Source: Oscillatoria acuminata PCC 6304
Lineage (GTDB): Bacteria; Cyanobacteriota; Cyanobacteriia; Cyanobacteriales; Laspinemataceae
Length of the DNA: 64,000 nt
Assembly (NCBI RefSeq): GCF_000317105.1
Contig: NC_019693.1
Location: forward strand, 3,839,227 to 3,903,226
Direction: 5' to 3'
A program made the translations under genes and the position numbers. The notes under the pieces are model-generated. The model was not told the DNA's origin. It saw nothing but the letters and a program-made list of their open reading frames with translations, and did no database searches. This document shows, one piece after another, positions 1,720-61,362 of this stretch (position 1 is its first letter; each line of letters opens with the position of its first letter).

Positions 1720-2625
1720 TCACCCCGAATGTAGCTTGATAGCCGCCAGTGACGAGGGTGGAGTTTCGAGGGAGAGACTCCGGCGAGTGGCTTCTACGAA
1801 TTGACTGACTCGAATTGGATCAATGGGTTGTTCCAGTTGTCCATGTCGTTTGAGGGAACTACAGACAATGACGCCATTGGCTGCCTGGATTAAGGTAGAA
1901 ATATTCTCCCAGTTGGCACCACTGCCAATAAAGACGGGAGTGCCTTTAGCCGCAGCGATCGCCAGTTCTAAATCTTCAAAAGAAGGGGGGTTCCCGGTGG
2001 CCCAACCGGACAGAATCACCCCATCGGCTAAACCGCGCTGAATGGTTTCTTGCACAGCGGTGGTGAGGTTGGGGGAACCCAAGGGCCGTGCGTGCTTCAC
2101 CAAAACATCAGCCAGGATTTTGACGTCGCTGCCGAGTTCTCGCCGATAGCGCAGCAGTTGATGCGCTTGTCCTTCGATTAAGCCTTGATCCGTCGCCATG
2201 ACCCCAGTGAGGACATTGACCCGGATAAAGCTGGCACCGACACAGGAGGCGATCGCCAATCCACTCAAGGCATCATTTCGCAAAACGTTGATTCCGATCG
2301 GCACCGTTACCAAGTTCATCAGCCGATCTACGATCAGGGTCATTGCACTCACGACGGCTGGATCGACCTGGCCGTTCGTAAAGGGAGCATCAAAGAAATT
2401 TTCGACAATAATGCCATCAACCCCGCCTGATGCCAACGCTGTGGCCTCTCGCTCGGCTCGCTCAATGACAGTTTTGAGGCTGCCCCCCCACCTCGGAGAG
2501 GTCGGCAGGGGCAGTAAATGGACAACACCAATAATCGGATTCGGGGTTTTGAAGAGCTGTTTTAAGTCCACGTTGTTACTATCTCGGACGCCACAAGAAC
2601 GTTGGGTCAACCAATATACTGACAA
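1720..2625 (-). CDS. btpA: BtpA-family (photosystem I biogenesis) protein
   Basis: N-terminal 'IIGVVHLLPLPTSPRWGG ... GGVDGIIVENFFDAPF' matches the BtpA TIM-barrel family signature. Confidence 0.75.
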   Translation of the reverse strand: MSVYWLTQRSCGVRDSNNVDLKQLFKTPNPIIGVVHLLPLPTSPRWGGSLKTVIERAEREATALASGGVDGIIVENFFDAPFTNGQVDPAVVSAMTLIVDRLMNLVTVPIGINVLRNDALSGLAIASCVGASFIRVNVLTGVMATDQGLIEGQAHQLLRYRRELGSDVKILADVLVKHARPLGSPNLTTAVQETIQRGLADGVILSGWATGNPPSFEDLELAIAAAKGTPVFIGSGANWENISTLIQAANGVIVCSSLKRHGQLEQPIDPIRVSQFVEATRRSLSLETPPSSLAAIKLHSG

Positions 2626-3097
2626 AGACTTTTAAGTAAGTCTTGACCCGCTCAAAGCGGGACTGTTGGATCCCGGCCTGGAGTGCGATCGCGATTCCTA
2701 TCGCCTAATAAATTAAGCCGGTATCGCTAGGTCACACCCAGGCCGGTTTTTACCAACTGAGGACCCGAGGCGTGCCTCGGATTACCTCCCTGAGTCGTTA
2801 GACTCACTCGTGCCACTATGTTCATTGTACTGCCGTGGCGAACCAAAGCTATCAAGTCATCAAATCTGCCCGTTGTCATGACTGGGGAACGCGACATTGG
2901 CCAGAGGTCAGGTTATGAAACGGTTTAGGTTAAGTTTTGTAGCATCAACCCTAGGATCAGCACAAATACGGAGACAACGAAAGTCGCCCTTCTCGGGGAT
3001 AAAATGTTGATACTTGTTTTAATCTAGGGTTTTTTTGGGGGGATATTTTGCAGCAAATGTCCGGAAGAGTCTCCAAAACCCATGAAAAATTTAAGGA

Positions 3098-3127
3098 TTG
3101 ACATCCGTGCAATCACTGAGTTAAGAT
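3098..3127 (+). promoter_or_regulatory. sigma70-type promoter (TTGACA-18 bp-TAAGAT)
   Basis: Perfect -35 TTGACA at 3098-3103 and -10 TAAGAT at 3122-3127 (keeps -12T, -11A, -7T). Confidence 0.45.
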
Positions 3128-3133
3128 AGAACT

Positions 3134-3297
3134 CTAAAGCACAAGCGACATCCCCAAGGCAGTTGCTGCTACCAGAATTAGAAGTTCCACGGGAATCAGA
3201 AACCCCAGCGCATCAATCGGGGACATCCCTGGAAGCATTCACAGTGTTCATTGTTCACCCTCGGTCTGGGTTAGAGTTACTCTAGCCCAGTTTTTCT
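3134..3297 (+). ncRNA. Candidate ~165-nt small RNA delimited by promoter and intrinsic terminator
   Basis: No ORF longer than 13 codons between the promoter (3098-3127) and the 11-bp GC-rich hairpin + UUUUU (3265-3297). Confidence 0.3.
3265..3297 (+). terminator. Rho-independent terminator
   Basis: CTGGGTTAGAG-tta-CTCTAGCCCAG (11 bp, one G.U) followed by TTTTTCTTT. Confidence 0.55.
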
Positions 3298-3401
3298 TTG
3301 GAAATTACCCCGGAATCCTCAAGGGCAGTAGCGATCGCCTCAAATTCCGATTAACATAGAAAAATCAACCCCCCATTACTGGAAGGGCCAAGGCATCAAG
3401 T

Positions 3402-4589
3402 ATGACGGTAGCAAAACCCATTGCAGTTCGCTCCAAAAAAACGCGCATCCCCCATCGCATTGCCAACTGGCTGGAAACTCATTGGGTAACCCCCGCCTAT
3501 GCCGGTTGGTTACTCTTAATTCTGGCCATATTTTTCTTTGGCGCGGCCACCAATACAATGGCCGGATGGCTGTATGTGATCAGTGGGGTGAGTTTTGCCT
3601 TGTTGGGAACTGCCGCCTGGTTGCCGGTGCGATCGCTTCAGGATTTACAAGTCCATCGCACCCCCATCGAACCCGTCAGCGCCGGGGAAGACCTCACCCT
3701 TGATCTGGCGATCGCCAATCAGACAGCAAAGCCAAAAACCTTGGTGCAAGTCGAGGATCTGATTCCTTTTGTCTTGGGAACACCCATGAAATCGGCCATC
3801 GAAGAAATCCCCCCACATGGCATTCATCATTGGGTCTACTACTACCCCACCCAACGGCGCGGTATTTATCGCTGGCATGAGGTCCAGTTAAGATCCGCCA
3901 CTCCCCTGGGGTTATTTTGGTGCAGGCGATCGCGCCAGGTCCCAGCGACCGCCGTAGTCTATCCCCAAGTTTTACCCCTGACTCACTGTCCTCTAGTCGA
4001 TCGCATGGGTCAAGAAGATAGCCTCCTGGTTCATAGCGATCGGCGCGCTGAAATGGCAAGCGAAGGCATCACCCGCACAGTCCGACCCTACCGATATGGC
4101 GACCCCACTCGCTTAATCCATTGGCGCAGCAGTGCACGCTTCGGGGAATTGCGGGTCCGGGAATTAGAAGTGTCCACCGGAGGACAAGAAGTAATTATTG
4201 CCCTCGATAGCGGCAGTTCTTGGAATTTAGAAGATTTTGAAGCAGCGGTGATTGCAGCAGCTTCTTTATACTGCTACGCCGAACGCTGTCAACTCAATGT
4301 CCGACTCTGGACTGCCGGCACAGGTTTGGTGCATGGCAATAACCGAGTCTTAGAAGCCTTAGCCGCAACCCAATCTAGAGAAGAAGATGCAACGGTGGGG
4401 GAACCTCCGTTTTTACCCTTAATCTGGCTGACCCAAAATAGCGCCAGTCTTAATCATTTACCCCGAGGTAGTCGCTGGGTATTCTGGCCGTCAGAGAGTC
4501 AAAAAGCTCCAGTGAATCAGGATTTTCGCGGTCTGGAAATTCAAGCGGATAAACCTTTGCAGCTTCAGTTGCAGTCATCGGAAGGATAA
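3402..4589 (+). CDS. DUF58 domain-containing membrane protein
   Basis: N-terminal TM helices; hallmark DUF58 motif 'RPYRYGDPTRLIHWRSSARFGELRVRELE'. Confidence 0.8.
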   Translation: MTVAKPIAVRSKKTRIPHRIANWLETHWVTPAYAGWLLLILAIFFFGAATNTMAGWLYVISGVSFALLGTAAWLPVRSLQDLQVHRTPIEPVSAGEDLTLDLAIANQTAKPKTLVQVEDLIPFVLGTPMKSAIEEIPPHGIHHWVYYYPTQRRGIYRWHEVQLRSATPLGLFWCRRSRQVPATAVVYPQVLPLTHCPLVDRMGQEDSLLVHSDRRAEMASEGITRTVRPYRYGDPTRLIHWRSSARFGELRVRELEVSTGGQEVIIALDSGSSWNLEDFEAAVIAAASLYCYAERCQLNVRLWTAGTGLVHGNNRVLEALAATQSREEDATVGEPPFLPLIWLTQNSASLNHLPRGSRWVFWPSESQKAPVNQDFRGLEIQADKPLQLQLQSSEG

Positions 4590-55911: not shown

Positions 55912-55963
55912 GTAGGGGCGCAATGCTTGCGCCCTCCGGAGGGCCTGCGCATTGCGCCCCTAC
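55912..55963. repeat. Compound palindromic repeat GTAGGGGCGCAATGC...GCATTGCGCCCCTAC with nested GCCCTCCGGAGGGC palindrome
   Basis: Perfect 15-bp outer arms plus an inner 14-bp palindrome; located 47 nt after the end of the surface operon. Confidence 0.7.
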
Positions 55964-56049
55964 AAGAAACGCCGATTTGTGCAGTCGCCTCGGGCGTTGT
56001 TTAGGCAGTCCCTCCCTCCCCGTTATCCCAGCCGATCGCCGGTGTCGTT

Positions 56050-60010: not shown

Positions 60011-60322
60011 CTAAATAACATTACCCATTCTGCTGTTTAATTGGGCAATAAATTCTTTGAACTCTAGCTCCCGACTATGACCTAAATCGGTTTCTAACCA
60101 CTTCTGAACGGACTCCTGGACTTGTTTAATTCGCGTGTGCCCCGAACGATATTCATCAATCGCTTGGACCAATTCGCGATCGGATAAATTTTCCACCAAG
60201 GTATTCAGATATGCTGCGGCAATCTGGGCCACTTCTGCTTCGGTTGCAGGGCCATCAGTCCCTTGGGTTTGATGCAATCTCATCGCGAGGCGATTTAAGG
60301 CGTCATAGGCTTGCTTGTTCAT
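60011..60322 (-). CDS. Hypothetical protein
   Basis: 103-aa ORF; no motif. Confidence 0.3.
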   Translation of the reverse strand: MNKQAYDALNRLAMRLHQTQGTDGPATEAEVAQIAAAYLNTLVENLSDRELVQAIDEYRSGHTRIKQVQESVQKWLETDLGHSRELEFKEFIAQLNSRMGNVI

Positions 60323-61229: not shown

Positions 61230-61278
61230 GTAGGGGCGCAATGCTTGCGCCCTTGGGGCGCAAGCATTGCGCCCCTAC
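61230..61278. repeat. Perfect 23-bp-arm palindrome GTAGGGGCGCAATGCTTGCGCCC-ttg-GGGCGCAAGCATTGCGCCCCTAC
   Basis: Same family as 55912-55963; lies between convergent gene ends. Confidence 0.75.
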
Positions 61279-61362
61279 AGATAGATACCTTCCTTTCAGT
61301 TGAACGGTTGGATGATTTATATTTTGCAATCCCCTTAGAAGATGATTGGGTTCGATATTTGT

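Follow-up and report, generated by a model that had tools for sequence, protein, structure and literature searches.

A candidate small RNA gene in the intergenic region between btpA and a DUF58 gene of Oscillatoria acuminata PCC 6304

The noncoding region between btpA and a gene of the DUF58 family in the cyanobacterium Oscillatoria acuminata PCC 6304 contains a sequence resembling a promoter and, downstream of it, one resembling an intrinsic terminator, and one can ask whether the two delimit an RNA of their own or belong to one of the neighboring genes. The region is part of a stretch of 64,000 nucleotides (contig NC_019693.1, positions 3,839,227 to 3,903,226), which is referred to below as the window and to which all coordinates apply. 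The original prediction, made from the sequence of the window, offered two readings, an independent small RNA (sRNA) or a terminator-based attenuator in the leader of DUF58. On balance, we favor a stand-alone gene, extending from promoter to terminator, for a plus-strand sRNA of ~165 nt that would act in trans via base pairing. Such an RNA would most likely be an ordinary regulatory sRNA, a lineage-specific member of a well-known kind of element. The candidate unit is composed of the following parts:

3084–3097, plus strand: A/T-rich tract GAAAAATTTAAGGA directly 5′ of the −35 element, with a putative function as an UP-like element.
3098–3127, plus strand: sigma-70-type promoter, with the −35 hexamer TTGACA at 3098–3103, an 18-nt spacer and the −10 hexamer TAAGAT at 3122–3127.
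3134 (about 3130–3136), plus strand: predicted transcription start, placed solely by its distance to the −10 hexamer.
3138–3170, plus strand: 5′ stem-loop SL1 of the RNAalifold consensus, the variable part of the RNA.
3185–3234, plus strand: central long hairpin SL2, in which UUCC-A-GGG...CCC-U-GGAA closes an apical CCCC/GGGG helix.
3235–3265, plus strand: near-invariant, mostly unpaired region CAUUCACAGUGUUCAUUGUUCACCCUCGGU, proposed as the seed on the strength of its conservation and the consensus fold.
3266–3299, plus strand: intrinsic terminator with an 11-bp stem and a 3-nt loop, followed by UUUUUCUUU, recognized by motif scan and fold energy.

Both signals that delimit the unit were located as originally described. 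The promoter, given as TTGACA-18-TAAGAT, is found at 3098–3127 and agrees with the consensus at 10 of 12 positions; the terminator, given as an 11-bp stem with a 3-nt loop and five thymines, occupies 3266–3295; and the ~140 nt said to separate the −10 hexamer from the hairpin were confirmed. The hairpin itself (3266–3290) reads CTGGGTTAGAG-TTA-CTCTAGCCCAG, is followed by TTTTTCTTT and has a folding energy of −14.9 kcal/mol. Read on the minus strand, it contains a C·A mismatch and is not followed by a T-run, and it is an orphan, there being no upstream plus-strand gene to which it could belong. However well they match, such motifs are not rare. Between positions 2000 and 4500, two promoter-like sites were observed against 1.9 expected, and eight terminator-like sites against 3.1 expected. 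By themselves, the promoter and terminator matches are within chance expectation, and the credibility of the pair comes from conservation. The significance of the unit must likewise come from comparison, since the motifs are not rare and the z score of the fold is only −1.66.

Eight syntenic genomes were compared initially, and the set was later extended to 13 sequences (12 of them distinct) from the Laspinema clade, designated here by L numbers. The closest DUF58 loci are those of Laspinema spp., Phormidium pseudopriestleyi FRX01 and Oscillatoria sp. HE19RPO. The spacer that houses the unit is homologous in seven further genomes, at 75–88% identity. Among the eight syntenic genomes, the ordinary spacer at 2851–3100 has 7–17 invariant columns per 50; the corresponding counts are 32 for 3101–3150, 34 for 3201–3250 and 41 for 3251–3300, the last value equaling or exceeding that of coding regions (35–44 per 50). 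The middle of the transcript (3151–3200) has 20 invariant columns of 50 and contains 1-nt indels. At finer scale, all 20 columns of block 3100–3119 are invariant, as are 50 of the 60 columns at 3241–3300, compared with 0–8 per 20 in the surrounding spacer. Region 3235–3265 is invariant or almost so across all 12 distinct sequences.

The promoter is conserved in a way that is itself informative. The sequence TTGACATCCGTGCAATCACTGA, which comprises the −35 hexamer and 16 nt of the spacer, is identical in all 13 sequences. Four versions of the −10 hexamer are found, TAAGAT, TAATAT, TAAGCT and TATGAT; T1, A2 and T6 are kept and changes are confined to positions 3–5. Variation at the less critical positions only is the pattern predicted for a functional sigma-70-type promoter, which this candidate appears to be. 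Upstream, the tract at 3084–3097 is A/T-rich in all relatives, and the DNA farther upstream is fully divergent. The invariance of the promoter spacer suggests an overlapping candidate site for a bound regulator; likewise, the block running from the −35 hexamer into the spacer within the invariant promoter stretch CCGTGCAATCACTGA points to a candidate transcription factor site. Comparison by hand of the invariant spacer and promoter with NtcA (GTA-N8-TAC), CRP-like and Fur-like sites gave no convincing match.

The consensus structure calculated by RNAalifold consists of SL1, SL2, the mainly unpaired stretch and the terminator. When pairing was counted on the cleaned structure, 95% of the cells were paired. 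Four pairs are changed on both sides, compared with 0.8 ± 0.8 in shuffles, of which 3 in 500 reach four. Three of these compensatory pairs are in SL2, where they are seen in L008 and L042; SL1 contributes one, along with several G·U variants, with helices 88–100% paired. The loop of SL2 is variable in sequence and has 1-nt indels. In the terminator, 9 of the 11 pairs never vary, and the U·G pair is replaced by U-A in L006. About ten G·U variants, including the terminator U·G, would become C·A mismatches on the minus strand, which favors the plus strand as the RNA strand. Taken together, covariation in the helices provides modest support for a conserved structure.

GAGGGUGAACAAUGAA, the complement of the proposed seed CAUUCACAGUGUUCAUUGUUCACCCUCGGU, looks like a Shine-Dalgarno sequence with a subsequent AUG (GAGGG-N7-AUG). 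A block antisense to a Shine-Dalgarno sequence and AUG, placed immediately before the terminator, is typical of trans-acting sRNAs that block translation, for which PsrR1 is the cyanobacterial model (PMC6596454), and we read the unit in this way. According to this model, transcription would proceed from the strong and probably regulated sigma-70-type promoter at 3098–3127, starting near 3134, and would stop at the intrinsic terminator at 3266–3299. The product would be composed of a variable 5′ stem-loop, a central hairpin, a near-invariant unpaired stretch of ~30 nt and the terminator hairpin. The unpaired stretch, being antisense to a Shine-Dalgarno sequence, a spacer and AUG, would pair with initiation regions of mRNAs encoded elsewhere in the genome, and such pairing would block ribosome binding and/or alter mRNA stability. 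We infer transcription, its start site, the base-pairing mechanism and the promoter regulator alike from sequence.

Does the unit belong to DUF58? Only ~105 nt separate the terminator from the DUF58 ATG, unit and gene share a strand, and the arrangement btpA-unit-DUF58 is syntenic in eight genomes. In three other loci (L009, L002 and L004), homology upstream of DUF58 ends ~58 nt before the ATG, and other DNA with a different terminator lies beyond. In the corresponding btpA loci (L033 for the L009 genome and L034 for the L004 genome), the complete unit is still present ~650 nt upstream of btpA; the distance to DUF58 is 13 kb in the L009/L033 metagenome-assembled genome, and in L034/L004 DUF58 is on another contig. 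In L044–L047, the unit is retained and the downstream DNA contains insertion sequences (IS) instead of DUF58. In L042, btpA and the unit are separated by a TnpB (IS605-family) element, inserted at the equivalent of window position 2782/2783. Promoter, seed and terminator are kept intact in all of these rearranged genomes (L033, L034, L042 and L044–L047). Sequence comparison thus shows the putative unit to be autonomous and conserved independently of both flanking genes, rather than a leader of DUF58, since it stays intact when its surroundings are rearranged. Of the two readings offered originally, the independent sRNA is supported by the comparison, while the DUF58-leader attenuator is contradicted by the rearrangements. 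As DUF58 keeps just ~58 nt of upstream DNA behind an unrelated terminator, it must have a promoter of its own.

Several features of the rearranged loci may be recorded here. The DNA upstream of the 58 nt that DUF58 keeps is replaced in L009 (1–2940), L002 (1485–1814) and L004 (99–665) by a shared segment of 330–570 nt, which ends in a strong terminator, GACCCTCTTAA...TTAAGAGGGTC followed by five thymines. The junctions of the replaced segment in these three loci show a short ATAGAAA microhomology overlap. In L009, the segment is preceded by a 301-aa transposase-like open reading frame (ORF), read as IS110-like. The TnpB element of L042 (1–2180) is ~1.45 kb long and is inserted inside a conserved block upstream of btpA that is described below. 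The terminator hairpin of the L042 unit, located at the contig start, is the exact reverse complement of the consensus hairpin and consequently has a C·A mismatch; this could be either a flip of the hairpin or an assembly artefact of the contig end. No upstream sequence other than the DUF58-proximal segment 3344–3401 (ATAGAAAAATCAACCCCCCATTACTGGAAGGGCC...) accompanies DUF58 in every case, and this segment probably holds a −10 element of the gene. Within it, a C-run is able to pair with the GGAAGGG Shine-Dalgarno region, and on the minus strand the segment scores as a terminator-like hairpin (3391–3365).

Targets were sought among the translation initiation regions (TIRs) of the window by a duplexfold scan, whose ranking was dominated by GC-rich sequences. 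One perfect 12-nt complement to the seed, GAACAAUGAACA, spans the AUG of an ORFan:

60011–60322, minus strand: ORFan of 103 aa without a Pfam domain; its 5′ region extends to ~60400.

Pairing with the TIR of the ORFan is kept through a G·U in two other genomes. We regard this TIR as a marginal candidate target and a lead only. The TIRs of btpA and DUF58 gave −16.9 and −14.5 kcal/mol, respectively, with the RNA, which is background level. A search among 5.8 billion proteins yielded just two homolog clusters for the ORFan, and both are from the Laspinema clade. The 5′ untranslated region (UTR) of this gene is very conserved, and the start region GGAGAUGGAACAAUGAACA holds the 12-nt complement to the invariant block.

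A number of results weigh against an sRNA acting by base pairing. The transcript as a whole, with the z score mentioned above, is not significantly more stable than shuffled sequences. Covariation events are few, most of them in L008 and L042, and the genomes compared are closely related; the shuffle control is recognized as lenient. No target was established within the 64 kb searched of a 7.7-Mb genome, and the single candidate is marginal: a 12-nt match was equaled in 12 of 1000 seed shuffles at the level of the window (1.2%), and the hybrid with the ORFan TIR, at −21.1 kcal/mol, was matched in 16 of 1000 shuffles for that TIR, which is not significant after correction for ~55 genes. Finally, functions exerted at the level of DNA might, in principle, explain why the promoter spacer and the 3′ block do not vary.

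The region between promoter and terminator had been described as containing no meaningful ORF. Two ORFs do exist there, one on each strand; neither is maintained in the relatives:

3134–3238, minus strand: hydrophobic ORF of 34 aa found by ORF scan, fully antisense to the candidate RNA.
3163–3285, plus strand: ORF of 40 aa with a TTG start, found by ORF scan.

Six-frame translation of eight homologs revealed 1-nt indels, lost starts and internal stops that disrupt both ORFs in relatives, and identified no conserved ORF on either strand of the unit. The 40-aa TTG ORF of the plus strand and a 13-aa GTG ORF were rejected, with an internal stop in L005 and loss of the start in L008. A coding role is ruled out by the 1-nt indels and the inconsistent frames. 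On the minus strand, a mini-ORF of 8–12 aa (MNTVN.SR..) located behind GAGGG-N7-ATG, with its start at 3251, is open in all eight genomes.

With these data at hand, the explanations that compete with a trans-acting sRNA can be weighed. A cis-acting leader of DUF58, in which transcription stops at the terminator or reads through it depending on a signal, would account for the shared strand, for the ~105 nt between terminator and ATG and for the synteny in eight genomes. It does not account for the separation of unit and DUF58 in L033/L009 and L034/L004, for the other DNA that follows the unit in L044–L047, or for the DUF58 genes of L009, L002 and L004, which keep just ~58 nt upstream (ATAGAAAAATCAACCC...) behind an unrelated terminator. 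Moreover, the 5′ and middle parts, where a sensor would be expected, are the least conserved and carry indels; there is no conserved anti-terminator and no conserved helix that would compete for the 5′ arm of the terminator, the sole candidate, CUCUAA at the 5′ end, being lost in most relatives; and DUF58 homologs at 56–66% identity lack such an element within 3 kb. We consider an attenuator very unlikely. Still less credit is due to a functional product of the minus strand, be it the 34-aa peptide as a type I toxin, with the plus-strand RNA as its antitoxin, or the mini-ORF product MNTVNASR.... The window does encode MLPGMSPIDALGFLIPVELLILVAATALGMSLVL, which resembles a single transmembrane helix, and the GAGGG-N7-ATG motif with its short ORF is open in all eight genomes. 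Against this, the 34-aa frame is interrupted by 1-nt indels, its ATG is lost in L005, stops occur in L003, L006 and L008, and its stop codon is not conserved either; the mini-ORF, for its part, undergoes non-synonymous change (A/D/H/P at codon 6) and fluctuates in length between 8 and 12 aa. The motif scan detected no promoter or terminator on the minus strand, the G·U pairs turn into C·A mismatches there, and there is no Pfam match.

It could also be that the RNA belongs to a cyanobacterial sRNA family that has been described but is not covered by Rfam, with PsrR1/SyR1 as the most plausible choice, in which case the element would already be known. PsrR1 is a high-light sRNA that represses photosystem I and phycobilisome mRNAs, with psaL, psaJ, cpcA and chlN as targets (PMC6596454). 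This RNA is found in many cyanobacteria, has a length of ~131 nt and base-pairs with ribosome-binding regions; computational predictions of its targets include btpA (PMC6596454). The motifs CAGAAUU and GUUC...CCCUCGG of the candidate RNA recur, in the same order, in the two SyR1 probe primers that have been published (PMC2662882). In addition, the PsrR1 promoter has a repressor site, RpaB/HLR1, between −35 and −10 (PMC6525291), which would fit the invariant spacer. However, the common motifs are just 7 nt each, and CCCUCGG of SyR1 is perhaps a terminator arm. The HLR1 consensus, (G/T)TTACA(T/A)(T/A)-N2-repeat, is not matched in a hand comparison (TTGACATC at 6 of 8 positions, TGCAATCA at 3 of 8), and no better register exists on either strand of the spacer. 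A metagenome scan with an invariant 19-mer of the unit gave chance matches only, in an incomplete collection that missed L043–L047, and the surroundings of btpA in Oxynema and Phormidium sp. CCY1219 gave no hit. An 18-mer derived from the SyR1 primers had no match at three or fewer mismatches in the acpP-fabF-tktA paralog locus, which is distinct from the Synechocystis fabF(slr1332)-hoxH spacer associated with PsrR1. Identity with PsrR1 is, in our estimate, quite improbable. The last alternative, slightly less improbable and still unlikely, is that only DNA-level elements are conserved, such as a regulator site with an insulating terminator or a spurious promoter, and that no functional RNA is made. 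An invariant promoter block of 22 bp exceeds the needs of a plain promoter, the RNA fold alone is not significant and no target was found, all of which would agree with this explanation. Yet the 30-nt block between SL2 and the terminator, the best-conserved noncoding stretch of the unit, has no obvious role as DNA, the compensatory changes in SL2 point to selection at the RNA level, and the unit stays intact after downstream replacement, when no DUF58 is left to insulate.

The distribution of the element was addressed by several searches. Rfam 15 gave no match at gathering thresholds over the whole window; at E ≤ 10, region 2500–3500 retrieved just chance-level eukaryotic families and speF. 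No tRNA or transfer-messenger RNA was found, and there is no paralog of the unit within the 64-kb window. A covariance model, R1, was built on the 3′ 79 nt of the unit. Searches with R1 detected no element within 3 kb of the DUF58 homologs L010–L020 (56–66% identity) and none in the DNA that precedes btpA in Oxynema, Phormidium sp. CCY1219 and L041, the last an ‘intermediate’ lineage with 90% BtpA identity. The 19-mer scan returned 12 chance matches, several of which are the antisense of unrelated Shine-Dalgarno and ATG sites; as a negative result it is weak, since the motif-bearing contigs absent from the collection (L043–L047, from JGI) were not reached. On present data, the putative element appears restricted to the Laspinema/O. 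acuminata clade.

As can be seen, the candidate shares its general design with trans-acting cyanobacterial sRNAs of the PsrR1, IsaR1, NsiR4 and Yfr1 type: an intergenic location, a strong, apparently regulated promoter of its own, a length in the 70–170 nt range, a Rho-independent terminator and a short conserved unpaired region whose complement resembles a ribosome-binding site. It differs in that no Rfam family matches its sequence or structure, in its known distribution, which is limited to the Laspinema/O. acuminata clade, and in a promoter without a recognizable HLR1, NtcA or Fur-like site. It resembles PsrR1/SyR1 in architecture, in the constrained interval between −35 and −10 and in its physical linkage to btpA, but differs in length (~165 nt versus 131 nt) and in a spacer without an HLR1 match. 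With attenuators and riboswitch leaders it has in common a promoter, a structured RNA and an intrinsic terminator upstream of a gene on the same strand; in contrast to them, its 5′ part is poorly conserved, no anti-terminator is present, and unit and DUF58 persist separately. A fully antisense hydrophobic ORF of 34 aa, found in this one genome, recalls type I toxin-antitoxin loci, from which the candidate differs in that ORF 3134–3238 is intact in the window only, with no consistent frame in relatives.

If the unit is transcribed, it would represent a well-defined and comparatively supported regulatory RNA for a lineage, Laspinema/Oscillatoria acuminata, without a described sRNA; our literature search turned up no publication dealing with sRNAs in O. 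acuminata. Promoter, seed and terminator are mapped finely enough for the design of probes, deletions and target predictions. As an ordinary kind of element, the unit leaves current concepts unchallenged, and its restricted distribution limits its general significance.

The genes on either side were assigned by Pfam, the DUF58 gene by a match to PF01882 (E 1e-6) and btpA as follows:

1720–2571, minus strand: BtpA, Pfam PF03437 (E 2e-106).

Upstream of the candidate unit, the minus strand carries two genes, VKOR and btpA. The start of btpA is most likely a GTG at 2571, giving a protein of 283 aa that matches the closest homologs among the matches listed. With this start, the spacer between btpA and DUF58, for which 775 bp had been stated, measures ~830 nt; the intergenic region as such was borne out.

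Between the btpA start and the variable spacer lies a noncoding block of ~290 nt (2572–2865) that is conserved across the clade at the level of coding sequence, with 32–41 invariant columns per 50 at 2601–2850 compared with 7–17 in neutral spacer. Its fold z score is about −5 on both strands, and it contains perfect hairpins, e.g., at 2646–2662, 2765–2780 and 2790–2805. The block has no match in Rfam, occurs once in the window and does not precede btpA in Oxynema or Phormidium sp. CCY1219. It could be either a long structured 5′UTR of btpA or a separate RNA. The first ~75 codons of btpA (2351–2571, minus strand) are nearly free of changes, with 46–49 of 50 columns invariant in eight genomes, synonymous sites included; the rest of the gene is less conserved (35–44 of 50). 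Such invariance points to either a recent sweep or an additional, overlapping constraint on the nucleotide sequence that extends without a break from the upstream block.

A direct 10-nt repeat, TGTTCATTGT, is present at 2819–2828 and 3245–3254, with an extended match at 18 of 25 positions, and links the conserved block upstream of btpA to the invariant region of the sRNA. The copy at 2819–2828 was considered as an interaction site in a long btpA 5′UTR and rejected: the pairing energy is −22.3 kcal/mol, 251 of 300 shuffles were at least as good, and the interaction is further weakened by uncompensated changes on both partners in L008. The linkage to btpA, the structured block at 2572–2865 and the invariant 5′ coding region of btpA could be combined into a control module for photosystem I. 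In this extended proposal, the sRNA would be a Laspinema-specific riboregulator, having emerged alongside genes specific to the lineage, and would use its seed to silence the 103-aa ORFan, likewise limited to the clade, and possibly other genes, as part of a new RNA-based module of photosystem I biogenesis together with btpA. We hold this proposal to be rather far-fetched, about as improbable as identity with PsrR1.

Elsewhere in the window, short and partly palindromic repeats at 61236–61341 and 55912–55964 match the start of contig L004 at 80–89% identity. They probably represent a dispersed small repeat of the clade.

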